Positions 3,782 to 61,347 of a stretch of DNA of 64,000 nucleotides are shown here, one piece after another. Every line of letters starts with the position of its first letter. Position 1 is the stretch's first letter. This stretch comes from an uncultured Bdellovibrionales bacterium (GTDB lineage Bacteria; Patescibacteriota; Minisyncoccia; Moranbacterales; UBA1568): the NCBI GenBank assembly GCA_964420045.1, contig CAYQPQ010000002.1, positions 2,979 to 66,978 on the forward strand, written 5' to 3'. Both the position numbers and the translations under genes were made by a program. Under the pieces are notes generated by a model. That model did no database searches and was not told where the DNA came from. It worked only from the letters and a program-made list of their open reading frames with translations.

Positions 3782-4960
3782 TTAATGCACCGTGACGGGC
3801 GTGCCGATGTCTGCCCAATTATAGACGCGCTCGGCAGGACCGACACCGAGGCGGACACAGCCGTGCGAGACCGGCGTGCCAAGATGATTTGCACCTTCCT
3901 TGTAGCCGCCCGGCCACTCAGGCAGTTCGTGAATGCCATATTTCCCGCTTGCCACAAGTGCCATCCAATACGGCATATAGAGCCCATAAGCCTTGGACCA
4001 CGGGCGCGGCGCCTTATTGTGAATCGTATAGTTCCCCTTCGGCGTATCCATTCCCCGCTTGCCCGACGAAACCATATAGGCATCAACAGCCTTCCCATCT
4101 TCAAAAGTTGTCATGACCTGCGTCTCCACATTGATATCGATATATTTTCCCGTGGCGACAACCGGCACCGTATAGCGCTTCGCATTGAGAAGTCGCGTCG
4201 GAAAATCCGCAGCCATAACCGTCGGCGCAGGCGGCAATGTCTCAAAACTTCCTTCATATGCCGTTTCAAAAGATGCGTCCGATGATTCCCGATGGCGCAC
4301 TCGAACCGTCAATGAATACTTCACGCCCGATTGAGTGTCCCGCGGGAGAATGCGAAACTCCTGCTTATCAGAATCAATGCCATACACCACTGCCTTTTCT
4401 CCATTGAACGAGAAATCAAGAAAAGAATCTTCCGCCGATCGATCAAGATGTACCACGACCGGATCCTCTGCTCCGAGTAGCACATCTCTCGCTCCGTCAC
4501 TCGGCGAGACCGATTCCACTTTTGGCGGCGCCCAGGTTTCGAAAAACAGCTTCGTTTCCGGGATCGACCCCAGCCACACGGTTTTCCCTGCCGGCAAAAG
4601 AAGTGAATACCGAGTCCCGGACAACCAATGCCCAACCGGCTTTACGAGAAGCTTCCGATCATCGTTCGTCCATTCAAAAATGACCGGCGTATCCGGCACA
4701 AGCCGGACAGCGTCAGCGAATCCATCCACATCAACCGAAGACGGAAAAGTCACCCCGAGCACACTCTCCGGCTTTACGCCCGCCACCGACACATCAAGCA
4801 TCGGTCGCGCTTCAAGAATGCGTGCATACGCTCGAAATCCATACACTCCCGCCGACGAAAGAAAGAGACCGATGACAAAAAGAGGCAATATGCCCCATGA
4901 CGTCTTTCGCTTTCGCTGACCGCGCAACTGATTTTCTCCCGATGAAAAATTGAAATGCAT
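3782..4960 (-). CDS. L,D-transpeptidase (YkuD domain) with an N-terminal membrane anchor
   Basis: The C-terminal HLGTPVSHGCVRLGVGPAERVYNW segment holds the catalytic His/Cys of the YkuD fold. A transmembrane segment sits at the N-terminus. Confidence 0.75.
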   Translation of the reverse strand: MHFNFSSGENQLRGQRKRKTSWGILPLFVIGLFLSSAGVYGFRAYARILEARPMLDVSVAGVKPESVLGVTFPSSVDVDGFADAVRLVPDTPVIFEWTNDDRKLLVKPVGHWLSGTRYSLLLPAGKTVWLGSIPETKLFFETWAPPKVESVSPSDGARDVLLGAEDPVVVHLDRSAEDSFLDFSFNGEKAVVYGIDSDKQEFRILPRDTQSGVKYSLTVRVRHRESSDASFETAYEGSFETLPPAPTVMAADFPTRLLNAKRYTVPVVATGKYIDINVETQVMTTFEDGKAVDAYMVSSGKRGMDTPKGNYTIHNKAPRPWSKAYGLYMPYWMALVASGKYGIHELPEWPGGYKEGANHLGTPVSHGCVRLGVGPAERVYNWADIGTPVTVH

Positions 4961-6996: not shown

Positions 6997-7198
6997 GCGC
7001 TCGTAGCTCAGTGGATACCTGCCTGCCGGTAGGCGGGGAGCGCCTGGTTGGTATCCAGAAGGTTGTTGCTTTATACACAATCGTAATTCATGTTTTTGCG
7101 CTCGTAGCTCAGTGGATACCTGCCTGCCGGTAGGCGGGGAGCGTCTGGTTGGTATCCAGAAGGTTGCTGTTTTATACACAATCGTAATTCATGTTTTT
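6997..7198 (+). repeat. Two tandem 101-bp repeats, each a truncated tRNA 5' half followed by a spacer. The fragment spans acceptor arm, D-arm and anticodon arm and carries a 20-nt insertion in the D-loop region
   Basis: Units begin at 6997 and 7098 (period 101) and the intact tRNA begins at 7199. Each unit reads GCGCTCGTAGCTCAGTGGATA+cctgcctgccggtaggcggg+GAGCG(C/T)CTGGTTGGTATCCAGAAGG and then diverges into ttatacacaatcgtaattcatgttttt. Neither unit has a T-arm or a 3' acceptor strand. Confidence 0.8.
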
Positions 7199-7271
7199 GC
7201 GCTCGTAGCTCAGTGGATAGAGCGTCTGGTTGCGGTCCAGAAGGTCGCAGGTTCGATTCCTGCCGAGCGCA
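7199..7271 (+). tRNA. tRNA, 73 nt, anticodon GCG (Arg); the isotype call is tentative
   Basis: The sequence is GCGCTCG-TA-GCTC-AGTGGATA-GAGC-G-TCTGG-TTGCGGT-CCAGA-AGGTC-GCAGG-TTCGATT-CCTGC-CGAGCGC-A, a canonical cloverleaf. Anticodon loop positions 34-36 are GCG. Confidence 0.8.
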
Positions 7272-7398
7272 CACTGACACAAAGTACAAGGATTTACACC
7301 TCTCCAAGAAAGATAAAAGACAGGCTCTTCGCCTGTCTTTACTATATTCATCGACAAAAACACGTGAAAGCTTCGCCATGCAGACGTCAAGACACTTC

Positions 7399-8016: not shown

Positions 8017-9888
8017 CTATCGAACGCGAATGAGAATCGTCTTTGAGGTGCTATTGCCAACATCATCATATACCTTGAGCTGGAACACATGGAGACCCGT
8101 CGGCGTATTCGCCGGAATATTGAACGATTTGCTCTTCGTAGTCTTCCAATACCCAAGGAACTGATAGCGGTAACGATCTATGTCTTCGTTATCCTGTGCA
8201 TCCCACCACACTTTTTCGCCACGCGACTTCGTGAGAAACCGAGGAAGATCGGTGATTTCGGGATCCTTGTCATCCACAAAGACATTGTAGGAAGCGGATT
8301 TGTCCACCTCGTTTCCATTTGCATCGATATAGCGCACCGCATATCGAGACGTGCCGTTTTCCTTCTCGGTTACCTTGATCGACCAATTTCCATCGCCATC
8401 CACCTTCGTACTATCCTTCAACTTTCCCTCTCGATAAATCTCAACCTTTCCGTTCTTAATGTCCGCATCCGATCCCTTAAACGAAAGCTTCGAATCATCC
8501 GTCATGAAATCATCGCGTTTTCCGAATTTCGTCTTTTCTCCGATAACCTTGATAGGATCTCTCGAGAATTCTCCTTTCCGATCCGAAGCGCCCGCAGCGC
8601 ACGACCGTTCGGTATCCGGGTTACCACCTGCGCATCCGGCAGGGCTTCCTTCGGCATCACGAGTCTGCACCCCGCCAAGACATCTCCCCCATTCGCCATA
8701 TGTAAAGCTCGAACAGGTTGTGACAGGAGGTTCATACGCACAGCTCTGACTCGACGAAGGTGGCGTACCACCGGAGCACCCGGCTGGAACTCCTGTTACT
8801 GCTCGCGTCTGCGTATTATCAACCTGGCAAGCGCCCCAGTCAGATGTATTGAAATTCGTGCAGGTCGTACTTCCACCGGTATAGGTACAGCTCTGTGTCG
8901 ACGCCGGCGGATTTCCACCAGTACACCCCACAGGAATACCCGTCACCGTCTGCGTCTGCGTGCCATCCGGTTGACATGCGCCCCAGCCAGATTCTGTGAA
9001 ACTTGTGCACGTCGGCGGCGTGTAGGCACACGATTGTGTCGTCTCCGGTACAGCGCCACCGGAACACACATCGGGAATCGTCGAGACAACCGTCTGTGTC
9101 TGCGTGCCATCCGGTTGACATGCGCCCCAGCCCGAATAGACATAGCCGGTACACGCCGGCGCACCCACGAGCGCCCGAATACCGGAAACGCTCGACAGCA
9201 AATCATTAGCGGATCCTCCCTCTTCAATAACGTCCGAATCGGTCTCGTTGTCCTGACCGATAAAGGTATATCGAATATTGTTTGTCGTCGAAGAGACCGA
9301 GCGAAGCGCTTTAAACGTCAGCGTTGCCACAAGACCCGAATTGTTTCGAACTCCCGGCGACGGCTTGGCAAGTGTCAAAGAAATCGTACCCCCCGCAGTA
9401 TCGTTATCCACAATCTGACATGGATTCCCTTGATACACACAGCTGTTGTCAACGCCGAATATGGAATTGCTCGTATCCCATCCCGTCAGTTGAAAATCCG
9501 CAGGATCATACGTCACCAAAGCACGCGTCGCAACAACGTCCATACCGCCCGTATCAACCACCAGATCCACGGAAAACGTATCGTCTTGAGCGACATTAAT
9601 CGTGGTTCCATCTCCGGTTGCGTCCGGCGATGTCATCGATAATGTTGCCGTTCCACTTGCTTTGGACAAACTCTCGATTTCCAGCGACACACTCCACACA
9701 AACGATACGAACGCGCCGGATATAAAAGCGAGCATAAAGAGCCCTTGCCAGGTCTTTACGCGCGTTCGCGACACAAACACCCACGACTTCCCCAAAAACG
9801 GCAGAGTATCTCCCGCAAGGTTGTCAATATGCCGATTTATAGTCCCCCCCGTTTGAAGAGGATCTTTCTTTTGTTTTTCTTCCGCCAT
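8017..9888 (-). CDS. Membrane-anchored surface protein with an N-terminal cohesin-like domain, four tandem Cys-rich repeats of about 38 aa and a C-terminal Ig-like region
   Basis: A transmembrane helix GLFMLAFISGAFVSFVWSV is followed by TINVAQDDTFSVDLVVDTGGMDVVATRALVTYDPADFQL...GLVATLTFKAL, a pattern like type I cohesin. A repeat of the form C..F..S.WGACQPDGTQTQTV.G.P.GC.GG.PP...QSC.Y occurs four times; the matching nucleotide direct repeats lie at about 8745-9200. Confidence 0.6.
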   Translation of the reverse strand: MAEEKQKKDPLQTGGTINRHIDNLAGDTLPFLGKSWVFVSRTRVKTWQGLFMLAFISGAFVSFVWSVSLEIESLSKASGTATLSMTSPDATGDGTTINVAQDDTFSVDLVVDTGGMDVVATRALVTYDPADFQLTGWDTSNSIFGVDNSCVYQGNPCQIVDNDTAGGTISLTLAKPSPGVRNNSGLVATLTFKALRSVSSTTNNIRYTFIGQDNETDSDVIEEGGSANDLLSSVSGIRALVGAPACTGYVYSGWGACQPDGTQTQTVVSTIPDVCSGGAVPETTQSCAYTPPTCTSFTESGWGACQPDGTQTQTVTGIPVGCTGGNPPASTQSCTYTGGSTTCTNFNTSDWGACQVDNTQTRAVTGVPAGCSGGTPPSSSQSCAYEPPVTTCSSFTYGEWGRCLGGVQTRDAEGSPAGCAGGNPDTERSCAAGASDRKGEFSRDPIKVIGEKTKFGKRDDFMTDDSKLSFKGSDADIKNGKVEIYREGKLKDSTKVDGDGNWSIKVTEKENGTSRYAVRYIDANGNEVDKSASYNVFVDDKDPEITDLPRFLTKSRGEKVWWDAQDNEDIDRYRYQFLGYWKTTKSKSFNIPANTPTGLHVFQLKVYDDVGNSTSKTILIRVR

Positions 9889-9942
9889 AGCGCCACAAAA
9901 ATAAACTTAAAAGATACGCATTCGGCTATCTTGAAAATGAAT

Positions 9943-10419
9943 TCACAAGCTTCCTTCCGAGAAATCAAACGACTTGAGCACATCGGCAATAGCCACAATC
10001 CCCACCATATGATCAGTACTGTCCACCACCGGAAACACGCTCAGTCCCGTTTCTTTGAATTTTCCGACCAACTCTCGAAGAGGCATGTTTTCGGAAACCG
10101 TCTGACAGGGAACACTCATAATATCTTTCGCTTTTGCCTGCATCAACCGATCCACCATCTCCCGACGACTGCCACTCATCTCACTCGCAACACGCATTTT
10201 CCGCATGAAGTCTATATACGAAGGCAAGTAGATATTCGACGAATCCTTCGTAAAAAAGTCTGTCTCCGTAATGATACCGGATATTTTCCCGGCATCCAAA
10301 ACGGGAACACCGTGAATCCGATGTTCCGTGAGAAGCGACGCCACTCTTTGCAACGGCTCTTCCAGTCCAACGGAAATGACCGACACGGTCATGATATCCT
10401 TCACAACAGAATTATTCAT
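9943..10419 (-). CDS. CBS-domain pair protein
   Basis: Two CBS motifs are present: VKDIMTVSVISVGLEEPLQRVASLLTEHRIHGVPVLD and AKDIMSVPCQTVSENMPLRELVGKFKETGLSVFPVVD. Confidence 0.75.
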   Translation of the reverse strand: MNNSVVKDIMTVSVISVGLEEPLQRVASLLTEHRIHGVPVLDAGKISGIITETDFFTKDSSNIYLPSYIDFMRKMRVASEMSGSRREMVDRLMQAKAKDIMSVPCQTVSENMPLRELVGKFKETGLSVFPVVDSTDHMVGIVAIADVLKSFDFSEGSL

Positions 10420-10582
10420 ACTCTGTCTACAGAAAAAGAATAGAGACGCTCTTCTCCGAAAAAGCACTTTCAGTATAAATCATTCTTCTCATATCCGCAA
10501 AAAGGAACAATGTCATTCCTGTCAACATGCAGAGCACACCGCTCCTCTTTACAAGAAATCGGAAAAAGACTCTTATGAAAGT

Positions 10583-12664
10583 ATGCTTTCCTACCAAACA
10601 GCCATTTCGGCTCTCCCGACAATTCAAAAGACCTTCGTCTCAAAATTTGCAACGCTCGGCCTATATACCGTTCGAGATCTCTTGTTTCATATTCCCTCGC
10701 GATACGAAGATTTCTCACGCATACAACTCATCGCCAGCGCCGTCGAAGAAGAAAAAACCACATTTGAAGGAACCGTCGCGCCGTTTCGAGAGAAAAAGAC
10801 ATGGAAACGACGCCTCACCATATTCGAAACCGAGTTGACCGACGACTCGGGAACGATTCGCCTCGTCTGGTTCAATCAGAAACTCGTCGCCGGGAGCCTG
10901 CTCCCAGGAACACGCATTCGCGTCTCCGGAAAGGTCTCGAGCGATCGCGACGGACTCGTGATGGTTTCCCCCGCATTCGAACGCGCGAATCGCCGCCCGA
11001 CACACACTGCGCGCCTCGTTCCTATCTATCCGGAAACCTACGGACTCACCTCAAAATTCATCCGCTGGCAAATCGAAACACTCTTCGAGAAAAAAATTGG
11101 CGTGCCAGATCCGCTGCCGCAGTCGCTCGTCGACAAACTTCACCTCCCGACACTTCCGCGCGCCCTCCGCATGATTCACTTTCCCGAATCTCCGGACGAA
11201 GTGGAAATCGCCCGAAAGCGACTCGCTTTCGATGACATGTTTCTCGCTCAACTCAAAAGCCTCGAGCTAAAATCGATCTGGAAACAATCGTCCGCCCTTC
11301 CCTTTCCGAGAGACACGAATTTCCTTGCGGAAAGCGCGTCCTATTTTCCCTTTTCACTTACCGCCGCACAAACGAAAGCCACGGAAGAAATTCTCGATGA
11401 TCTTGCCAAAAGCATACCGATGAACCGTCTCGTCAACGGCGACGTCGGTTCCGGGAAAACTGCCGTTGCCATACTTGCAGCGCTTCGAGTGGCGCACGAC
11501 GGATTTCAAGTTGCGCTGCTTGCACCGACAGAAGTGCTCGCCCGACAACATTTTGAAACCCTCTCGACACACTTATCGCACGCGCCATTTCAAATCGCCC
11601 TCCTGACGCGTTCTTCACAGATACTCGCTACAGAAACCGTCGCCAAGGAAACCCTCAAGAACGCTATAAAGAGCGGGCTCGCAAGCATCATTATCGGCAC
11701 GCATGCACTGCTTCAAGAAGACGTGTCGTTTCGAAACCTCGCTTTGGTTATCGTCGACGAACAACATCGCTTCGGCGTTTCCCAGCGAGCCGCACTCCAA
11801 GAAGCGACGAGACATTCGAAGGACGGAATGCCTAAGACAACGCCGCACCTCCTCACACTGACCGCAACACCGATACCGCGCACCCTTGCTATCACATTCC
11901 TCGGCAATCTCGACATCTCTGTGCTCGACGAGATGCCAAAAAATCGCCTCCCTGTCATTACGAAAATAGCCGCAACACGCGACGCACGAGAAACCGTCTT
12001 TCGATTCGCTCGGCAAGAAATAAGAAAGGGTCGACAAATCTTCATTATCCTACCCCTCGTCGAAGAATCGGCAACGCTCTCCGAAGTCAAAGCCGCCAAA
12101 ACCGAGCACGAGAAACTCTCCGCAAAGGTATTTCCCGAATACTCCGTTGGATTGCTCTACGGAAAAATGAAATCCTCCGACAAAGAAAACGTTATGCGTG
12201 ACTTCAAAGAAGGAAGATTGCATGTCCTCGTTTCGACCTCCGTTGTCGAGGTGGGCGTCGACGTGCCAAATGCCACTGTCATGATTATCGAAAACGCCGA
12301 CCGATTTGGACTCTCCCAACTCCATCAATTTCGCGGACGCGTCGGGCGCGGGACACACCAATCCTATTGCTTCCTCCTTCCGGGAAAAAACAGCGCCAAC
12401 GACCGTCTTGACGCTCTCGTCGAAAGCAACAACGGCTTTTTCCTTGCCGAGAAAGACCTCGAGATTCGCGGTCCGGGAGCCTTCTTCGGACTCCGACAGT
12501 CAGGCATCCCCGATATCGCCATGAGTCACCTCGGCAACGCCCGACTCATCAAAATCGCCCACGATGAAGCAGAAGCGCTTCTCCTCGAAGATCCAGTGTT
12601 AGAGCATCATCCTTATCTTCGTGCTGCCCTCGCCGAGATGACCGAGAACGTGCACATGGAGTAA
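10583..12664 (+). CDS. recG: ATP-dependent DNA helicase RecG
   Basis: The protein has a wedge/OB N-terminal region, then helicase motif I GDVGSGKT, DEQHRFG (motif II), the TATPIPRTL segment and the RecG C-terminal motifs. Confidence 0.85.
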   Translation: MLSYQTAISALPTIQKTFVSKFATLGLYTVRDLLFHIPSRYEDFSRIQLIASAVEEEKTTFEGTVAPFREKKTWKRRLTIFETELTDDSGTIRLVWFNQKLVAGSLLPGTRIRVSGKVSSDRDGLVMVSPAFERANRRPTHTARLVPIYPETYGLTSKFIRWQIETLFEKKIGVPDPLPQSLVDKLHLPTLPRALRMIHFPESPDEVEIARKRLAFDDMFLAQLKSLELKSIWKQSSALPFPRDTNFLAESASYFPFSLTAAQTKATEEILDDLAKSIPMNRLVNGDVGSGKTAVAILAALRVAHDGFQVALLAPTEVLARQHFETLSTHLSHAPFQIALLTRSSQILATETVAKETLKNAIKSGLASIIIGTHALLQEDVSFRNLALVIVDEQHRFGVSQRAALQEATRHSKDGMPKTTPHLLTLTATPIPRTLAITFLGNLDISVLDEMPKNRLPVITKIAATRDARETVFRFARQEIRKGRQIFIILPLVEESATLSEVKAAKTEHEKLSAKVFPEYSVGLLYGKMKSSDKENVMRDFKEGRLHVLVSTSVVEVGVDVPNATVMIIENADRFGLSQLHQFRGRVGRGTHQSYCFLLPGKNSANDRLDALVESNNGFFLAEKDLEIRGPGAFFGLRQSGIPDIAMSHLGNARLIKIAHDEAEALLLEDPVLEHHPYLRAALAEMTENVHME

Positions 12665-12726
12665 CGCTTGCCACAAACCAATTCGCCTCTTCGATCTCAC
12701 CTCCTTGCCAACACGGATTCCAAAAA

Positions 12727-14274
12727 TCAAATCCTCCAAACTGACCCGACACGCGCATCCATCCGTGTACATACTCCAAGAAGAAGCCCGAGAAACATCA
12801 TGCCGAAGTGTCCGCTCCACAGCCAGTGGTCGAGCAAAAGCATGGGAAGAAGGGTACAGAAAATCGCCATCGAAAGAGCATTTCTTCTCTTCCATGCGGA
12901 GACAAACCAGCACAAGAGAGGCAGAGCAAACAACACGAATCCGACCGCGCCAAGCTCAGCAAATACCAGGACCGGCACCATATGCACCGGCTGAAACGCA
13001 CCGACAAATGTTCCAGCGCTCGGGAGACGCTCCCGCGTAAATGCCGTAAAATTTCCGCCGCCGACGCCAAGAACCAGGTGCTCGCGTATCACCGAGAGCG
13101 CCTGCTCAAAATAAAGCGCCCGATCTGAAAGCGACCCTTCACGCGCAAGTGTTCCTTCCGAAAAGCGACTCAATGCAATATCGCAAACAAGAAAGAAAGC
13201 AATAGAGAAAGAAAGAATCACAATAACTACGCTGCTCACCCATCCCATTCCGTCATTCCCGCGCCTGCCTGCCGGTAGGCATGGAAGGCGGGAATCCAGA
13301 TACCGCAAGACTCCAGACAAATTGAAACGGGATTTTCTCGGAAAATTATCGACACTATCAACCGTCGAAAGGCACGTTTCGGGAAAGTTTTCTCTTGGAA
13401 CATCCGAGTCTTGGTAAAGCGTAGATTCCCGCCTTCGCGGGAATGACGAGAAAAGAGAGTGCTTCAGACATCGAGTCAAACCCAGAAGCAGCACTCCCAT
13501 CCCCAAGAGAAGCCCCATCCACCCGCTTCGAGAAAAGGTAAACACAAGCGCAAAGCTCATCAGAGCCGTCATCCCCAAAAATACAGCTCTCGAAGAGACT
13601 CGCTTCGCCGTCACCGAAAGCCATACACCAAACAGCATGGCAACCGCCAGCGCGCCTCCGAGCACATTTGGGTGTTCAAACCCGCCATACGCACGGAGGA
13701 ATCGCCCGCCCTCGGTTTTCAAAACAAACGTCCCCCATCGCGCCGGATCATGCTCCGCGATGCCAAGCAGTGTCGAAGGTGCGATATATTGCCCTGCCCA
13801 CTGCGAAAGCGCGAGACTTGCTTGAATCGACATCGAGAGGAGAAAAATAGAGATCGTCTTCCGCATCGAAACGTCACTATATCGCGCAAGCACAAAGGCA
13901 AGCGTCATGAGAAATATTCTCCACGCAGAAATAAGTGCAAGACTCGCATCGATCGACCAGAGAGAAGAAAGAAGCGCCCACAGGAAAAATACGCCAAGCA
14001 GAAGCAACACGCGGTCACGAACAACAACTCGCCACACCTCCCGTTTCGTTCCAAAAACAAAAAACAGAGCACACAAAAGAAGTGCCACATCCGACACATA
14101 TGTCCCAAGCGTCGCATATTGCCATTTCTCCCCACTCACAAATACCTCCCGCACTATCCACACCGTCTGCCACGGAAGGAGAAAGACAAACGCATACCAC
14201 AAAAATTGTCGCCCCGATTTCAACATAGCGCCAGCATAGCACTCGCCCCACCCCTTCGTCATTCCTTCAAGCAA
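12727..14274 (-). CDS. O-antigen ligase / O-antigen polymerase family (Wzy_C) membrane protein, carrying an in-frame insertion of about 210 nt made of palindromic repeat elements
   Basis: Multiple transmembrane helices are present. The Wzy_C motif FTFSRSGWMGLLLG and the downstream periplasmic-loop motif ...GGGNF...FQPVHMVPVLVFAELG match the O-antigen ligase family. Between them a hydrophilic low-complexity stretch of about 70 aa is encoded by nt 13245-13455, the segment that holds the repeat elements. Confidence 0.7.
   Translation of the reverse strand: MLEGMTKGWGECYAGAMLKSGRQFLWYAFVFLLPWQTVWIVREVFVSGEKWQYATLGTYVSDVALLLCALFFVFGTKREVWRVVVRDRVLLLLGVFFLWALLSSLWSIDASLALISAWRIFLMTLAFVLARYSDVSMRKTISIFLLSMSIQASLALSQWAGQYIAPSTLLGIAEHDPARWGTFVLKTEGGRFLRAYGGFEHPNVLGGALAVAMLFGVWLSVTAKRVSSRAVFLGMTALMSFALVFTFSRSGWMGLLLGMGVLLLGLTRCLKHSLFSSFPRRRESTLYQDSDVPRENFPETCLSTVDSVDNFPRKSRFNLSGVLRYLDSRLPCLPAGRRGNDGMGWVSSVVIVILSFSIAFFLVCDIALSRFSEGTLAREGSLSDRALYFEQALSVIREHLVLGVGGGNFTAFTRERLPSAGTFVGAFQPVHMVPVLVFAELGAVGFVLFALPLLCWFVSAWKRRNALSMAIFCTLLPMLLLDHWLWSGHFGMMFLGLLLGVCTRMDARVGSVWRI
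13245..13455. mobile_element. MITE-like palindromic element inside the O-antigen ligase ORF. Two inverted copies of a 26-nt hairpin core gattcccgccttcgcgggaatgacga flank about 125 nt; the left copy carries a nested 17-21-nt element cctgcctgccggtaggc in its loop
   Basis: The segment 13251-13300 reads cgtcattcccgcg+cctgcctgccggtaggcatgg+aaggcgggaatccaga. The segment 13424-13449 reads gattcccgccttcgcgggaatgacga, the same core in opposite orientation. The identical 26-nt core recurs at 62276-62301 inside ileS. Confidence 0.7.
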
Positions 14275-14300
14275 ACAAAAAAGCCTCCAATAGAGACTTC

Positions 14301-14343
14301 AAAAAAATCAAGGGCGGATGGAGGTTTATTTCCACACCCGCCC
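14301..14343 (-). terminator. Rho-independent terminator module (GGGCGG-N20-CCGCCC hairpin followed by a T-run on the minus strand), copy 1
   Basis: The minus strand reads gggcgggtgtggaaataaacctccatccgccc followed by gattttttt, directly downstream of the lipoprotein gene. Confidence 0.55.
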
Positions 14344-14351
14344 TGCCAACA

Positions 14352-14834
14352 TTATCGGAACTGAACGCAGTCACCGGGATCTATCCCGGTTTGCAAGAAT
14401 ACCGCTCCGCGCGCAGCCGCCGTTTCCCTATCTTTTGAGACGATTTCCGTCGGAACGAGAGCGTCTCCCTGAACCAGGAAAACACGCCACCCTTGCTTCG
14501 CACGATGAATCCTCGCATACCGGGAACCTTCGGTTCCCGGACCTATAGTGCCGAGCGAAACAAACGAAATGGCTCCGGTCACCCACCCGAAATTTGGATT
14601 GTACGCCAGCTCGCCGCGATGTGGGAAATAAAATACCTTCCCATACCTCTCGTATGGTTCCCCGCTTTCAGACATCCCGCCTACGGAAACATACGTTTCC
14701 ACCATACAGGTATCGCGATGGACAACCATATCCACCGAACGCGTCACTGTCACATCCCTCGACGTCGGAATCCCCGCACAGCCGACAAGAAAGAGCAAGC
14801 TCACAGCAAACAACAAACCACAAAAATTCTTCAT
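14352..14834 (-). CDS. Putative lipoprotein of unknown function
   Basis: MKNFCGLLFAVSLLFLVGCAG has a signal peptide and a lipobox-like LVGC. No motif was recognised. Confidence 0.5.
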   Translation of the reverse strand: MKNFCGLLFAVSLLFLVGCAGIPTSRDVTVTRSVDMVVHRDTCMVETYVSVGGMSESGEPYERYGKVFYFPHRGELAYNPNFGWVTGAISFVSLGTIGPGTEGSRYARIHRAKQGWRVFLVQGDALVPTEIVSKDRETAAARGAVFLQTGIDPGDCVQFR

Positions 14835-14859
14835 CGCATCCTCCAATCTTTCGCTCTTC

Positions 14860-14903
14860 AAAAAAATCGGGGGCGAATGGAAATTTATTTCCACACCCGC
14901 CCC
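14860..14903 (-). terminator. Rho-independent terminator module, copy 2, nearly identical to copy 1
   Basis: The minus strand reads ggggcgggtgtggaaataaatttccattcgcccc followed by gattttttt. It shares the core tttatttccacacccgccc with copy 1, 560 bp away. Confidence 0.55.
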
Positions 14904-15380
14904 AATGAACAATCCTTTTCAGCGCTGTCGAAATCCATTCTGTCCCGGACGGATAATGGTCTTCATCCTGCGAACAGGAGGTTTTTTTGTGCCTCCTGAC
15001 TGGTGACAAGCGCAGCCGGCATCAACCCACCCGGCAACCGCTTTGATGTCAAAATCAGCAGAACTGCCAAACCCGGCACGTAACACAATCTTACCAGCTT
15101 CTTTTAAAAACATTGTCATTCTCTCCAGAATACAGATTTAGGAAGAAAGAATACAAAAAATTATTTGCCGATACGGCGGAGAAATTTCCACGGACAAATC
15201 AGAGACCTGAATCAACCGTAAAATTCCTCTCCGCCGTATCGGGTGAATTGTCAAAGATCTGCACAACCGGAATAGTAGCATATCGCCTCTGTTTTGTCAA
15301 TAACATTGGACAAGTGGCGCACACAACATAAAAACGGCTCTTTTAAGTCGTTTTTATGAAACAAACACGATGTACACTCT

Positions 15381-17171
15381 TTATTTGCCTTTCCTCCCTG
15401 CTTTCACTCTATCGTTTTCGGTGAGGTACTGTTTGCGAAGGCGGACATTTTCCGGGGTAATTTCGAGGTATTCGTCACCGGCCATCACTTCGAGTCCGCG
15501 TTCAATGGAGAGCGTCCACGGCGGCGTGAGCTGGATCGCATCGTCCGATCCCGAGGCGCGCATATTGGTAAGTTGCTTGCCCTTGGTCGGATTGACACTC
15601 ATATCATCGCCCTTCGAGGCATTGCCGATCACTTGCCCCTCATATACATCCGTGCCGGCGCCGATATAGAGTACGCCACGCTCCTGCAAATTCCAGAGCG
15701 AGAAGCCAAGCGCCTTCCCAGTCGCCATCGAAATCATCGAGCCGACGCCGCGGTGCTCGATATCACCCACATGCGGACGAAATTCCAAGAACCGAGAAGA
15801 AAGAATGCCTTCGCCCTTCGTATCGACGGTAAACTGCCCGCGATACCCCAAGAGTCCTCGAGTCGGGATTTCAAAGAGAAGTCGCGAATCATTGCCTTGC
15901 CCCTGCCTCATGTCCATCATAATGCCCTTCCGCTTCCCCATGCGCTCGATGACCGCGCCGGTATATTCCGTCGGCACATCCACTGTCACCTCTTCAAACG
16001 GCTCGCACTTCTTGCCGTCGATTTCCTTCATAATAACCTTCGGCTGAGACACCTGGCATTCATAGCCTTCGCGCCGCATCGTCTCCAAGAGAATAGCAAT
16101 GTGAAGCTCGCCACGCCCCGACACCAAGAAATGCTCGCCCGAATCAAAGTCGATTTTCAGTCCCACGTTTATCTCAAGCTCTCGGCGCAAACGCTCACGA
16201 ATCTGCTCGCGCGTCACAAATTTCCCTTCCCGACCGGCAAAGGGCGAGTCGTTCACCAGAAAATGCAGCGTGATCGTCGGCTCATCAATCGCAATCGATG
16301 GCAGGCTTTCCACTTCCTTAGTGTGCGCAATCGTATCGCCGATATACACATCGGCAATACCGGCAATCAGTGCGATATCGCCCGCCGACACGTCCGCCGA
16401 TTCTTCGCGATTCATGCCGCGAAAGGTAAAAATTTTGGTAATGCGCCCCGAAGAAACTTCCCCCGTCGGCTTTTTCGCGTAGACCGTATCGCCCACCTTC
16501 GCCGAACCCTCATAGACACGACAGATGGCAAGTCGCCCGAGGAAATTGTCATAACCCAGATTAAAAGGCTGGGCTCGAAACGGCGACGCCGTATCCTGTC
16601 CCGCCGCCGGCACCGCCTCGAGCACTGTATCGAGAAGCGGCGAGAGATCCATCGATTCGTCCGCCATATCTCGTTTCGCAATGCCCTGCTTCGCAATCGC
16701 ATAGACCGTCTTGAACTCCAATTGCTCGTCCGTCGCCCCAAGATCGAGAAACAGCTCAAACACCTGATCGAGCACCCACTCGACGCGCGCCGCCGGCTTG
16801 TCTATCTTGTTCACCACGACAATCGGCTTCAATCCGAGTTCGAGCGACTTTTTGAGCACAAATCGCGTCTGCGGCATCGGACCCTCCTGAGCATCAACCA
16901 CCAAGAGAACTGAGTCGATCGAGCGAAGCACGCGTTCCACCTCGCTCCCGAAGTCCGCATGCCCCGGCGTATCGACGATATTGATCTTCGTGTCCTTGTA
17001 GAACAGCGCCGCGTTTTTGGAATAAATAGTGATGCCCCGTTCCTGTTCGAGCGCATTCGAATCCATACTCGCCCCCTCTTCGGTCATCCCCGTCTGGCGC
17101 ATCAAGGCATCGGTCAGGGTCGTCTTCCCGTGATCGACGTGCGCGATAATAGCAATATTGCGAATGTCCAT
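15381..17171 (-). CDS. typA: Translational GTPase TypA/BipA
   Basis: [24 protein letters not shown] is the G1 motif. [14 protein letters not shown] and an EF-G-like domain layout follow, with a BipA-specific C-terminal domain. The length is about 597 aa. Confidence 0.9.
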
Positions 17172-27500: not shown

Positions 27501-30500
27501 TTTTCCGTATTCGCGACCGGCATATGTTGTCCCGATAAGAATATCGCTCGACGAATCCGCAATCGACATCGAAATAGAGCGCGAATTATTCAGCGTACCG
27601 TCAATATACACACTCATCGTGGAGCCATTATACGTTGCGGCGACATGGTGCCAATTTGTATTAAAAGAACTCGTTGAAGACTGCAAGAAAGCATTGTTGC
27701 CAAACGACCAAACAGCCGCATCGGCATTCGCTGTATTTCCGGTGCCAGCATAAAACTTTCCTTTGTAGGCACTGAACGCGCCGACTTCTTCAATCGTCGA
27801 CCCCCAACTTCCGTTCACGTTGTCACCACCGGCTTGCGCCCACAACGATCCAGCATATCGCCACACCTCTCCGTCTCCGGCTGTCGTGCCCAGTCCCGCA
27901 TAGAGCGCTCCGTTATAAACAGCGAGCGTTCGAACCCGCTCATAGGTTCCGCTTGACCAACTTCCACCAATATCGTCGCCTCCGATAAGCGTCCACGACG
28001 AGCCATCATATTTCCACACTTCCGCATCATCGGTCGATGTGCCAAGCCCCACATACAAAAACCCGGCGTACACAATCATACTGTCCACTTGTTCATAGGT
28101 ACTGTTCGCCCAGCTCGAATTGATACCGTCCCCACCGACACGACTCCACGATGGAGTACCGTCACAATTGGCACACTCCCACACCTCGGCGTCGCCGGCG
28201 CTCGACCCCAAGCCGGCATAGAGCTTCCCAGCATGCACCCCGAGCGTTGTCACTCGTTCAAAATTCGTCGTCCAGCCGGAATACAGACTGTCGCCGCCAA
28301 CCTTAGTCCACGTTGAACCATTCCATCGCCATACTTCCGCGTCATTCGCGCTATTGCCCAAACCGGCGTAGAGGAATCCGCCGTATGACGCCAAAGAATT
28401 TACCTCTTCAAAGCCCGTTGTCCAGCCGGAATTGAGACTGTCTCCGCCGATTTGTTCCCATGTCGAGCCGTTCCAATGCCACACTTCCGCATCATTCGAA
28501 CTCGACCCCAAGCCGGCATACAATTCTCCTCCGTGCCCGATAAGACTCGTCACCGTTTCATAGGTATTCGCATCCCAACTCCCATTTACACCCTGACCAC
28601 CGATAATGGTCCATGTCGTCCCATCAAACTGCCACACCATAGCATTGCCGATAGTGGCGACGCCCGTTCCCGCATACAAATAGTCACCCGTCACGTTTAA
28701 AACCTCAACACTTCGGAGCCCACGAAATCCCCAGCTGAAATTCACATAATCACCTCCGATAAGCGTCCATGACGATCCGTTCCACGCCCATTCCTGTGCC
28801 GAAACCGTCGAACTCGAAGTACTCACACCGGCATAGAGCGTCGATCCGGACACGGCAAGGGTACTTACAATAGTGTGTGTATTCGTAAAACTCCCATTCA
28901 CGCCGTCGCCGCCGATTTTAGTCCAGGTTGATCCGTCAAAACTCCATACCTCATTGTCTCCGGCCGTTGAGCCAAGACCGGCATAGAGTGTTGTCCCGTC
29001 ATTCACGATGGAGTACACCATTTCATAGCTCGAACTGTCCCAGCTTGAATTTACGGTGTCGCCGCCGATCTTGCTCCATGTCGAGCCGTTCCATTTCCAT
29101 ACTTCTGCGTCGCCTGCCGTCGAGCCGAGACCAACATAGAGATTCCCGCCAAAATAGGTCATCGAGTAGACATATTCGAACGTCGTATCCCAACTTGAGT
29201 TCAGACTGTCGCCGCCGATCTTGCTCCATGTCGAGCCGTTCCATTTCCAGACTTCGGAATCCCCGGCTGTCAAACCCAGCCCGGCATACACGTTCGTACC
29301 GTCATTCACCAAGCTATATACGCCTTCGTAATTTGTCGTCCAGCCGGAATTCAAACTATCACCGCCGATCTTGCTCCATGTCGAGCCGTTCCATTTCCAC
29401 ACTTCGGCATCATTCGCGCCCGTCCCGAGACCAGCGTAGAGCTCCCCGCCAACAAACGTCAGCGCATTCACCGCCTCAAACGTATTAATCTGCCAGCTTG
29501 AATTGAGCGCATCGCCGCCGATCTTGCTCCATGTCGAGCCGTTCCACTTCCACACCTCGGCATCGCCCGTTCCACTTCCCAGTCCGACATAGAGATTCGT
29601 GCCGTCATTCGCCATGACATACACCGCCTCAAACGTATTGATTGCCCAGCAATTGTTCAGTCCGTCTCCGCCGATCTGCGTCCATCTCGTTCCGTTCCAT
29701 TTCCACACTTCGGCGTCGCCCGTTCCGTTTCCCGTCCCGACATAGAGATTCCCATCGAGAACATTCGACGATTCGATAGTCGGATTTCCGTTCAAATCCC
29801 AACTTCCGTTAATATCGTTCCCCGCCTGCTGCGTCCATCCGGATGCCGAATCATTCGCCAGCTCATAGGTGAGCTTGCCCGTCTCATTGTCGTAGTACAA
29901 CTGATAGTCGCCCTTATCGACAATACCCTGCCGTTGAGAATGGCTTCCCGCCGAAAAAGCCGAGGAAAATTTCGTCCACGCTTCAATCGTATTCGCCTGG
30001 GACAAAGAATTTGCCGTCGAATCCGGAACCGACGCAAAAGCTGTCGTTCCGTTGAGCGAGAGCGCATTGTTTAGATTCCCCGAAACAAAGCTTCCTCCCG
30101 ATACCGTCGCGTGATTCGCATTCGACGAACTATCATTGGCCGTCGACCCGCTCGATTCGTCGAAATGATAGAGTGCTACCGTATCGCTATCGTCCGCATA
30201 GTTCTTCACCGAAAGCCGCGATTCCGTATTCGAACTATCGAGAGTCACTCCACTCGAAGCAACATAGTCACTCGGCGTTGCAAAATTCCATGCTTCACCA
30301 ATCTCCCCGTCAGCGAAAATACTGTGGATCCGACCCGAAAAGAACAGAAACGCGCCCGCCGCCACACAAGCGGACAAGACAGATAGACCGATGTATCTCG
30401 GCTTCAGACTCCAAAAAATTCGAGCTATCCGAAGCAGGAATCGCCCAAAGAAAACTCCGATCGATATGAGGAGTCGATAGAAATGGTTGTGTTTTTGCAT

Positions 30501-36618: not shown

Positions 36619-37314
36619 TCAAAAAAACCGATGGTACACGTTTCCGACATCAGAAATCCATTTCGCCACACTTTCTGGAGAATGTCCTTCACAGGACGAG
36701 CCGCACTTCCAAACAATGAGTCGCTCCGGCGAGTCCAAATGTTTCTCATGAACCAGCTCGGAGAGTCGATTGCCTACCGTCTCAATCGCTTCTTCCGGAC
36801 TCGCGAAACACGCATAGCCCATACCGGTGCCGCGGCTTCCCGTTCCCTTATAGCCCCAATAGTTGTAGCAGTCAATGCCGTCCTTCGTCGGAGCATGCTC
36901 TCCCCAGGAGCTTTCCTTTCGAGCGATGCTCACCAAAAACGCCGCCGTCTCCCGATCGCGCTTCGCCAAGAAAGGCGCCATCGCTTCCATCGGTTCGCCC
37001 TGGAGCGTTGAGGCAAGCAATGTGCGAAACCGAAACTCCTCCTCCGTCTCCCCTTCTTTCGGAGACATTTCCGCCTCGCAAGAGGGGGCAAGAGTCTCCT
37101 GACTCGCATCACTCAGAGCATTCTCCGATCGGAATTCCAGCAGATCGTCCTGCAAGTGAATATCCGACCCTTCTGCCGAAGCCATACCCCCATTCCAAAC
37201 AAAGAACACGAAAAAGAGGCTAATAAAGCCAAAAAATCTGCAAGCATACCACATCCCCCGCCCGCAACGCTGTGCGTAGCAGTGCGGGCGGGCCCGACGT
37301 AAAGGAATATCCAT
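36619..37314 (-). CDS. Membrane-anchored protein and paralog of the next gene; the C-terminal domain weakly resembles a glucosaminidase or peptidoglycan-hydrolase domain
   Basis: ...AAFLVSIARKESSWGEHAPTKDGIDCYNYWGYKG... compares with the glucosaminidase-domain pattern ESgWG...NlFGiK. The C-terminal region WKCGSSCEGH is conserved in both paralogs. Confidence 0.35.
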   Translation of the reverse strand: MDIPLRRARPHCYAQRCGRGMWYACRFFGFISLFFVFFVWNGGMASAEGSDIHLQDDLLEFRSENALSDASQETLAPSCEAEMSPKEGETEEEFRFRTLLASTLQGEPMEAMAPFLAKRDRETAAFLVSIARKESSWGEHAPTKDGIDCYNYWGYKGTGSRGTGMGYACFASPEEAIETVGNRLSELVHEKHLDSPERLIVWKCGSSCEGHSPESVAKWISDVGNVYHRFF

Positions 37315-60789: not shown

Positions 60790-61347
60790 TTACAAGAGTT
60801 GCAAGTAATCCAATGCCATATATCCGAGCTCAACATCAGTCATGCAACCGGAACGAAGCAGCTTTCGAAATTCATTAAGAGAAAGGAACGCAACCTCTGT
60901 CGATTCTCCATTATCCTCCAACATCGGTTCGGCGACTTTTTCGCACTCGGTGATGCAAAACACATTCTTTTTGTAGGTTGCGTACGCGCTCGGCAATACC
61001 GTCCCGACAAATTTCGAAATGCCTCGATAGCCGGTTTCCTCGAGTAACTCGCGATTGATTGCCACTTCCAAATCCTCGCCGTCTTTCGGCCCGCCACCCG
61101 GCATTTCCAGAAGTATTTCCGCCGGTCCCGGGCGAAACTGCCGTGCCAAGATCACGCGATTATCCTTCGTAAGCGCGAGGCATGCCACCGGATCGTGATC
61201 AGAAGTATTCAGATAGAAATCCGTTTCCTTCCCATTTGGAAGCCGGTACACTCGTTTTTCTACCCCTCGTCCGTACTTCAAGAAGACGCTCTCTCGGGAA
61301 ACTTCTTCCCAACGTTGTACCGCGTTATTCATACTTTCTTCAACCAA
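60790..61347 (-). CDS. NUDIX hydrolase
   Basis: The NUDIX box is GGGPKDGEDLEVAINRELLEETGY, which fits GX5EX7REUXEEXGU. Confidence 0.85.
   Translation of the reverse strand: MVEESMNNAVQRWEEVSRESVFLKYGRGVEKRVYRLPNGKETDFYLNTSDHDPVACLALTKDNRVILARQFRPGPAEILLEMPGGGPKDGEDLEVAINRELLEETGYRGISKFVGTVLPSAYATYKKNVFCITECEKVAEPMLEDNGESTEVAFLSLNEFRKLLRSGCMTDVELGYMALDYLQLL

Follow-up and report, generated by a model that had tools for sequence, protein, structure and literature searches.

Head-to-head hairpin dimers, probably of the CGTC-1/dRS3 family, carried in frame by an O-antigen-ligase-like gene and ileS of a Moranbacteria genome

In the 64-kb window analysed here (the whole stretch of 64,000 nucleotides taken from contig CAYQPQ010000002.1 of assembly GCA_964420045.1, Moranbacterales), two housekeeping genes of the minus strand, one encoding an O-antigen-ligase-like membrane protein and the other, ileS, encoding isoleucyl-tRNA synthetase (IleRS), each carry an in-frame insert built of two inverted hairpins. 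We consider it likely that the common hairpin unit belongs to the family described under the names of CGTC-1 repetitive extragenic palindrome (REP), Neisseria dRS3 repeat, Neisseria Transformation Sequence (NTS), Ssn-related motif (SRM) and Rickettsia palindromic element (RPE) 6, and that its head-to-head dimers act as mobile or recombinogenic DNA which is kept in frame within genes. The host, an ultra-small member of the Moranbacteria in the candidate phyla radiation (CPR), appears to be new for this family.

The repeat unit and its family

The 26-mer GATTCCCGCCTTCGCGGGAATGACGA, which a preliminary description of this DNA had placed in both genes, is present there in exact copies (13,424–13,449 and 62,276–62,301) and nowhere else in the window, and 100 shuffles of the window yielded no match to it with up to three mismatches tolerated. 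The stem, first described as 7 bp long, comprises 8 bp, the stem and loop of this unit (unit A) being ATTCCCGC / GAAG / GCGGGAAT with a 4-nt loop. The inverted copy suspected near 13,251–13,300 was found as a third hairpin, ATTCCCGC...GCGGGAAT, at 13,255–13,295, in the orientation opposite to that of the 26-mer in the ligase gene. The related flanking hairpins are real too, GAGTCTTGCGGTAT-CTGGAT of the ligase gene and GAGTCTTCCGGTATTCTGGAT of ileS agreeing at about 19 of 21 positions on the coding strand, and a second hairpin type, GTCATCCTCGGGCTTGACCCGGGGATCC, which differs from unit A, adjoins the ileS copy of the 26-mer at 62,229–62,256. Altogether the window holds four hairpin units and one half-site. 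The tetranucleotide CGTC stands directly before the stem at 13,445–13,448 (minus), 13,251–13,254 (plus) and 62,297–62,300 (minus); the tail is CCA in unit A of ileS and in the 13,251–13,299 unit, and CTA in the 13,421–13,448 unit. In both inserts the two inverted hairpins are arranged head to head, with the CGTC tags at the outer ends.

CGTC-tagged REPs have a CGTC or TGTC tag, an 8–9-bp stem starting with AT, a 4–5-nt loop and a CCA tail, and form mainly head-to-head dimers with the tags outside and spacers of 20–100 bp (Di Nocera et al. 2013, BMC Genomics, PMC3733652). Unit A has the tag, the 8-bp AT-starting stem, the 4-nt loop, the CCA tail and the head-to-head dimers of the CGTC-1 type. 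The same work equates CGTC-1 with Neisseria dRS3 and with RPE-6 of R. conorii, and CGTC-4 with RPE-4; it also reports in-frame intragenic copies in several species, among them copies in tRNA synthetase and DNA-repair genes, the dimers encoding 20–30 amino acids (PMC3733652). The classical dRS3 repeat is in turn contained in the NTS, CGTCATTCCCGCGMAVGCGGGAATCYRG, which was defined together with the variant NTSvar and the degenerate SRM, HGTCWYN(0-2)YYVSBRHN(0-5)WNVSBRGN(0-2)RNCYNB, by Chenal et al. (2025, Nat Commun, PMC11893778). With one mismatch allowed, the NTS consensus is matched in full (28/28) by unit A of ileS and with a single difference (27/28) by the ligase unit. The SRM pattern has three strict matches in the window, unit B of the ileS insert among them, where 50 dinucleotide shuffles gave 0.44 on average. 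By its tag, stem, loop and tail, unit B resembles the CGTC-3/4 or NTSvar type.

The RPE-like signature noticed at the outset is therefore literally right, by way of the published equation of CGTC-1 with RPE-6 (and of CGTC-4 with RPE-4). The guess that in-frame palindromes of this kind might be new holds for the host only: the repeat family and its in-frame habit have already been published, but our literature search found no record of these repeats in Patescibacteria/CPR, and Patescibacteria are not mentioned in the paper defining NTS and SRM (PMC11893778). Searching the literature for the encoded peptide motifs returned no papers, and comparison of the element-encoded peptide with a database of 5.8 billion proteins returned just 10 short spurious ORFs (open reading frames).

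Five of the six reading frames of unit A and four of the six of unit B are free of stops. Unit A is read in different frames by its two hosts, as SFPRRRES in the ligase and as RHSREGGNP in IleRS, so the feature shared by the two genes is the DNA and not the peptide, and peptide-level selection is excluded as the cause of the similarity. Chance resemblance, convergence of low-complexity peptides or an assembly artefact is hardly credible as an explanation. The source is presumably a metagenome-assembled genome, in which repeats can produce chimeras; nevertheless, the unit is identical across 26–28 nt where none would be expected, the two genes use different frames, the same inserts recur in assemblies of independent origin (ENA, NCBI, Logan and JGI), and the flanks are collinear with the orthologs on both sides. 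We rejected this explanation on these grounds.

The two host genes and their inserts

The features of the ligase gene are as follows.

12,727–14,274, minus strand: Wzy_C/O-antigen-ligase-like membrane protein, a 515-aa ORF from the ORF list (Pfam PF04932, E = 4e-10)
13,251–13,449, minus strand: insert of 199 nt in which two CGTC-1/NTS hairpins form a head-to-head dimer, tags outward, recognised from sequence, fold and orthologs
13,421–13,448, minus strand: unit A1, CGTCATTCCCGCGAAGGCGGGAATCTAC, with tag CGTC, 8-bp stem and GAAG loop (match to the SRM pattern; NTS 27/28)
13,300–13,420, minus strand: dimer spacer of about 120 nt, overlapping 3–4 nt of the unit tails on both sides
13,251–13,299, plus strand: unit A2, CGTC-ATTCCCGC-G(21-nt insert)AAG-GCGGGAAT-CCAG, the inverted partner of A1
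13,264–13,284, plus strand: nested 21-nt hairpin CCTGCCTGCCGGTAGGCATGG, exactly in the loop of unit A2, recognised by comparison with the L122 ortholog
14,257–14,265, minus strand: half-site GGAATGACG, lying just upstream of where the ligase gene probably begins, recognised by the same comparison

Homologs of this protein carry the name O-antigen ligase family protein, Candidatus Moraniibacteriota, and its translation probably begins at the internal Met of MLKSGRQ. The names of the homologs of both host proteins assign the organism to Candidatus Moraniibacteriota, within Patescibacteria/CPR. No record of exactly this ligase protein was found, and a scan of genome contigs gave IleRS relatives of at most 66% identity. 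Flanked by two conserved hydrophobic blocks, the insert is translated in frame from SSFPRRRES through about 55 amino acids to LDSRLPCLPAGRRGNDG. In the AlphaFold2 model it lies inside a low-confidence coil (residues 275–341, pLDDT<50) with confident helices on either side (249–276 and 340–370). A recognisably homologous insert is carried by the homologs P0003 (72% identical) and P0011 (59%), and P0004 to P0010 have an apparent degenerate version. The element measures 199 nt and not about 210 nt (70 codons), as initially given, and amounts to about 65–70 codons when compared with insert-free orthologs.

The nested hairpin adds seven codons (PCLPAGR). It is missing from the ortholog in L122, the ligase locus of CP064989.1 (GCA_016699875.1), whose unit A2 is otherwise the same, and a 17-mer of it recurs in the window at 7018 and 7119, within tRNA-like repeats. 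At the position equivalent to the half-site, L122 has an intact CGTCATTCCCGCGAAGGCGGGAATCCAG (9970–9997), and the half-site is what remains of a third SRM. The ligase gene also has, a little way upstream, a 47-nt repeat of the form CTTCAAAAAAATC..GGGCGGATGGA..TTCCACACCCGCCC, whose two copies (14,297–14,343 and 14,856–14,902, about 560 nt apart) are 89% identical and include a GC-rich hairpin; this may represent a terminator-like repeat or one belonging to a promoter region.

The features of ileS are as follows.

61,329–63,995, minus strand: ileS, with its 5' end beyond the window (Pfam tRNA-synt_1, Anticodon_1 and DUF5915; homologs)
62,228–62,300, minus strand: insert, 73 nt long, a heterodimer arranged head to head: unit A, a spacer of 14 nt, unit B
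62,273–62,300, minus strand: unit A, CGTCATTCCCGCGAAGGCGGGAATCCAG, with the tail CCA (NTS 28/28; CGTC-1 anatomy)
62,259–62,272, minus strand: dimer spacer, 14 nt
62,228–62,258, plus strand: unit B, TGTCATCCTCGGGCTTGACCCGGGGATCCAG, tagged TGTC, its stem of nine positions containing one mismatch, its loop 5 nt long and its tail CCA

Translated as NRHSREGGNPESSGILDPRVKPEDD, and with unit B inverted on the coding strand (CTGGATCCCCGGGTCAAGCCCGAGGATGACA), the ileS insert occupies the linker between the catalytic and the anticodon-binding domains, where the Pfam domains stop at residue 518 of the fragment and resume at residue 596. At this site 115 of the 120 Moranbacteria IleRS homologs have a short linker (W-x-P-K-xxxKPSx-N-LLDRW) and the window protein has the 30 residues LLNRHSREGGNPESSGILDPRVKPEDDRQK; among the 120, the window shares its insert only with P0106 (96% identical), P0112, P0114 and P0115. 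The ligase site is likewise empty in about half of the 26 aligned homologs. Both segments are thus insertions, as had been supposed, since most orthologs do without them. On folding, the ligase element forms one long hairpin of −95.7 kcal/mol (z=−5.3), and the ileS element reaches −41 kcal/mol (z=−3.4).

The reading frames of both minus-strand host genes are preserved through the inserts, as was claimed from the start. We infer that the inserts are translated, because the frame is held in every genic copy and because proteins of R. conorii decorated by RPE-1 are expressed in vivo (PMC3733652). The opposite assumption, that the segments are removed before or after translation in an intron-like or intein-like manner and are absent from the mature protein, seems to us very improbable. 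The very stable RNA and DNA structures formed by both inserts would suit it, and CPR bacteria are known for insertions in their rRNA genes. Yet excision would make stop-free, frame-keeping genic copies unnecessary, removal of the ileS element at its own boundaries would shift the frame, its 73 nt being no multiple of 3, Rfam gave no intron match (a sub-threshold hit to FtrB only), and the segments are far below the size of known self-splicing introns or inteins. Frame maintenance, the 73-nt length, the missing intron match and the small size led us to reject it.

Copies elsewhere, conservation and length change

The heterodimer is dispersed over many unrelated sites in environmental DNA. Metagenome contigs contain 84 copies of its A-spacer-B arrangement, with unrelated flanks and hypervariable spacers of 8–30 nt, and the 20-nt core is present in at least 120 IMG/VR contigs, again with unrelated flanks, only cTGG-core-GAC being conserved. 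Most of the heterodimer copies are probably intergenic, because they are located in short stop-free stretches. In-frame copies were found in genes for IleRS (L208), UvrD helicase (two copies), TsaD, a methyltransferase, ATP synthase gamma, RNase HII and, at its C-terminus, an epimerase, and all genic copies that were examined lack stops and preserve the frame of their host. The IleRS gene of L208 has two heterodimers 372 nt apart (3878–3952 and 4250–4324), the one at the site occupied in the window and the other in the anticodon-binding region; their 15-nt spacers are identical, which shows that a whole dimer can be copied.

Closer to the window, 412 kb of Moranbacteria loci contain 10 strict units (regular expression, stems of 5 bp or longer), nearly all of them within long ORFs, and 421 kb of loci from other CPR contain none; these loci were selected around ileS and the ligase gene, so the genic fraction is biased. 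An in-frame SRM unit, TGTCATTCCCGTGAAAACGGGAATCTAG, is seen in the ArgRS gene of a Moranbacteria relative (L125, 5067–5094), and an SRM variant, TGTCATTCCGGGCCTGACCCGGGATCCAG, in the N-terminal part of another IleRS at a different site (L134, 7737–7765). The lineage-specific spacer pattern GAGTCTTSCGGTAT..CTGGATYCCCG had no match in the metagenome contigs, and further copies of the exact subfamily are thus not demonstrated. The ligase spacer (blastn, query 13,296–13,424, 129 nt) matched nothing outside the ligase site in about 2.9 Mb of fetched DNA, which gives no evidence for repetition of the whole 199-nt unit. The last 20 or so nucleotides of this spacer, GAGTCTTGCGGTATCTGG, are similar to the ileS spacer.

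The ligase element has changed its length recently. The ENA locus L121 is 93–99% identical to positions 8546–15,480 of the window and lacks 195 nt of the element, in frame, retaining one chimeric hairpin, CGTCATTCCCGCG-CCTTCCATGCCTACCGGCAGGCAGG-CGCGGGAATGACG; the L121 form would most simply be a recent deletion between the two units, because more distant relatives hold the long form. The ligase P0001 (96% identical) has an extra VDS triplet (STVDSVDSVDNF) in the element spacer at about residue 310, and this 9-nt tandem duplication appears to be another sign of ongoing length change in the insert.

The ileS elements of the five carriers (the window, L123, L124, L125 and L208) were compared over a region that aligns without gaps. 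Pairwise identity is 93.6% for hairpin A and 97.4% for hairpin B; it is 43.6% for the 14-nt spacer, the length of which is constant in all five, 63–66% for the flanking coding sequence and 46% for third codon positions there. In L124 the stem of hairpin A shows a compensatory change of C-G to A-T. The ligase element is 90–97% identical between the window and L122 as compared with 76% for the whole gene, and the spacer query, which includes both unit tails, gives 89.9%.

These figures bring in the possibility that the hairpins are under nucleotide-level selection for a DNA or RNA function, either as sites for an Ssn-like or another hairpin-binding protein that would modulate recombination or transformation of the flanked essential gene, as has been proposed for the Neisseria NTS, or as mRNA structure. 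This explanation overlaps with the preferred one rather than excluding it, and we regard it as possible but, at present, rather unlikely. It is favoured by the excess of hairpin over spacer and third-position identity at one insert length and position in five IleRS lineages, by the compensatory change in L124, by the higher identity of the ligase element than of its gene, and by the conservation of the unit in different frames of two genes, so that the constraint is not on the peptide. On the other hand, most orthologs manage without the insert and a near-identical strain has partly deleted it, gene conversion from other copies or repeated re-insertion could equally conserve the hairpins, and no cognate protein has been identified in the Moranbacteria lineage. 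A more far-reaching proposal, to which we give somewhat less credence still, is that in Moranbacteria, and probably in other CPR, SRM/CGTC dimers in essential genes are under very long nucleotide-level purifying selection, or else that the dimer homes to the ileS site.

The distribution of the ileS insert is patchy. In a neighbour-joining tree of the 120 IleRS proteins with the insert masked, the carriers (the window with P0106, P0112, P0114 and P0115) fall into four separate clades, each with an insert-free sister group. It is conceivable, though doubtful in our opinion, that the insert was gained several times at one site, by site-specific targeting or homing-like recombination, instead of resulting from a single ancient insertion followed by many losses. 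Besides the tree, this would account for the second copy with an identical spacer elsewhere in the gene of L208, the fifth carrier, and for the resemblance of the ileS spacer to the end of the ligase spacer of the same window. Against repeated gain, all five carriers have a 14-nt spacer and the same codon phase, whereas spacers elsewhere vary from 8 to 30 nt; the divergence of the spacers is about that of neutral sites, which is what one old orthologous insertion predicts; deletions inside such elements demonstrably happen (L121); and the supporting tree is a rough protein tree. Conservation and patchiness taken together fit either a single old insertion with many losses or repeated acquisition or conversion.

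Kindred elements, a possible agent of spread and the meaning of the inserts

The closest counterparts of the window elements are the CGTC-1 REPs, which share with them the CGTC/TGTC tag, the 8-bp AT stem, the 4-nt loop, the CCA tail, the head-to-head dimers and the in-frame copies (PMC3733652). That family, however, was described in five phyla, mostly in Alphaproteobacteria, before CPR genomes existed; copy density is low here and nearly all of the copies seen are in coding sequence; and the ligase spacer of about 120 nt is longer than the usual 20–100 bp and is itself conserved. The Neisseria dRS3/NTS and SRM repeats (PMC11893778) are matched by unit A of ileS, with its full NTS identity, and by both A and B, which fit the SRM pattern, but in N. 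meningitidis NTS form large intergenic arrays, only 2% of them lying within genes, and no Ssn gene was seen in the window. As with Rickettsia palindromic elements, we deal with in-frame palindromes in conserved ORFs that are absent from orthologs and encode hydrophilic surface segments, although RPE-1 is a longer and unrelated palindrome and Rickettsia, an intracellular alphaproteobacterium, has many more copies.

More general resemblances exist to REP/BIME (bacterial interspersed mosaic element) systems with their RAYT proteins, which likewise combine small tagged hairpins, inverted dimers and a proposed trans-acting enzyme of single-stranded DNA (ssDNA) hairpins; the REP tag is GTAG, though, and RAYT is an HUH Y1 transposase, not a GIY-YIG protein. 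[quoted passage not shown] In contrast to MITEs, no target-site duplication is seen, and the termini are autonomous hairpin units that also occur singly; no related insertion sequence transposase is known. Finally, the model consensus of the Francisella small RNA FtrB (Rfam RF02748) has unit A, a spacer and an inverted unit B, and the ileS element matches it over the full length with 36 bits and E of about 1e-4, short of the model's gathering score (66). FtrB itself is transcribed from an intergenic region, and the resemblance most likely reflects a shared REP dimer, not a shared small RNA function. Rfam gave sub-threshold matches only (FtrB, WsnRNA46 and two chance matches), and no known RNA family accounts for the elements.

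We suggest that the dimers are small non-autonomous mobile or recombinogenic DNA that would land in places such as the inter-helix loop of the ligase or the inter-domain linker of IleRS. They would persist there owing to a frame-keeping insert length and to the stop-free frames of both units, and it is these frames that explain the survival of such insertions in a gene-dense genome; the host proteins would gain a hydrophilic, probably disordered loop. Spread or maintenance may depend on a small ssDNA nuclease of the GIY-YIG type, from the Ssn family, acting in trans. Such a nuclease of Neisseria and Wolbachia binds this hairpin when it is in ssDNA and places its nick a few nucleotides 5' of the tag; SsnA, a GIY-YIG protein of 94 aa, binds the hairpin exclusively in single-stranded form and cleaves a few nucleotides upstream, and ssnA genes are typically flanked by SRM (PMC11893778). 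On a head-to-head dimer such nicks would fall one at each outer end, on opposite strands. Indirect support for a link with Ssn comes from canonical Ssn-like GIY-YIG ORFs, which adjoin the same hairpins in some of the fetched environmental contigs, and in L259 such a gene directly follows two tandem heterodimers.

Several observations weigh against this account. The flanks of 69 heterodimer copies revealed no target-site duplication, direct repeats or target motif, and a transposition mechanism is consequently not demonstrated. Copy density is low, with 4 units in 64 kb and 10 in 412 kb, compared with hundreds of copies in Neisseria or Rickettsia. The ileS hairpins are conserved far above neutral sites, which is not predicted for a purely passive passenger. 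A regular-expression search found no GIY-YIG ORF in the 64-kb window, and the Moranbacteria relatives have GIY-YIG genes for 81–90 aa that are UPF0213-like and not clearly of the Ssn subtype, NCBIfam and PDB scans of these small proteins giving no assignment to that subtype.

In the Moranbacteria relative L126 (20,700–21,300) a 90-aa GIY-YIG ORF has on one side a pseudo-copy of a tRNA gene's 5' half, with a different hairpin, CCCGCCAGCTGGCGGG, in the D-arm region, and on the other the intact tRNA gene, which by our reading of the anticodon loop is presumably tRNA-Lys; this layout suggests an element that encodes a GIY-YIG protein and has tRNA genes as its targets. The window itself contains, in tandem, two pseudo-copies of 101 nt each (6997–7097 and 7098–7198) that correspond to the 5' part of tRNA-Arg(GCG), have no T-arm and carry in each D-loop a 20-nt hairpin (CCTGCCTGCCGGTAGGCGGG), the same as that at 13,264–13,284 in the ligase gene; the intact tRNA-Arg gene (7199–7272) follows immediately. 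These ORF-less repeats (6997–7198) could be remnants of an element like that of L126. A second hairpin family is represented at 37,255–37,295 by CCCCCGCCCGCAACGCT-GTGCGT-AGCAGTGCGGGCGGG, between two paralogous genes, where it is spuriously translated at the N-terminus of ORF 36,619–37,314; long hairpins close to this type are located just downstream of small GIY-YIG genes beside smpB in L125 and L126.

Elsewhere in the window, a long minus-strand gene at 27,800–29,800 consists of repeats of about 50 aa (150–153 nt; ...LY.GLG.G.NDAEVWKWNGSTWSKIGGD..., families D1–D5) and probably encodes a beta-propeller-like surface protein. GC skew over positions 1–64,000 is negative in all 2-kb bins after the first, reaching −0.27, and the minus strand holds most of the long ORFs listed (around 10–15 kb, 36–38 kb and 59–64 kb), which is consistent with the whole window belonging to one replichore.

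Four aspects of these data appear to be new: the Moranbacteria (CPR) host of the dRS3/NTS/SRM, CGTC REP and RPE-6 family; the contrast of conserved hairpins with diverged spacer and third positions in ileS across five lineages; the patchy distribution of a one-site ileS insert on the IleRS tree; and the 195-nt in-frame deletion in the ligase element of a near-identical relative. A cross-phylum family of hairpin repeats is thereby extended to the candidate phyla radiation, where, in genomes that are about 90% coding, the repeats survive mostly as in-frame decorations of housekeeping proteins, namely IleRS, ArgRS in one relative and the O-antigen-ligase-like protein. The repeat explains recurrent motifs of predicted proteins such as SFPRRRES, VIPAKAGIQ, RHSREGGNP and LDPRVKPEDD, and both alignments and phylogenies should be made with such inserts masked.

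The nucleotide-level conservation of the ileS hairpins and the patchy occurrence of the insert at the same site are the parts that deserve follow-up, and conserved hairpins beside a diverged spacer in an essential gene offer a clean natural test for selection on the repeats. If such selection does operate, the hairpins would be functional DNA or RNA elements within coding sequence and not decaying passengers, serving, for example, as marks for a hairpin-specific ssDNA nuclease that controls the recombination of incoming DNA in DNA-scavenging cells.

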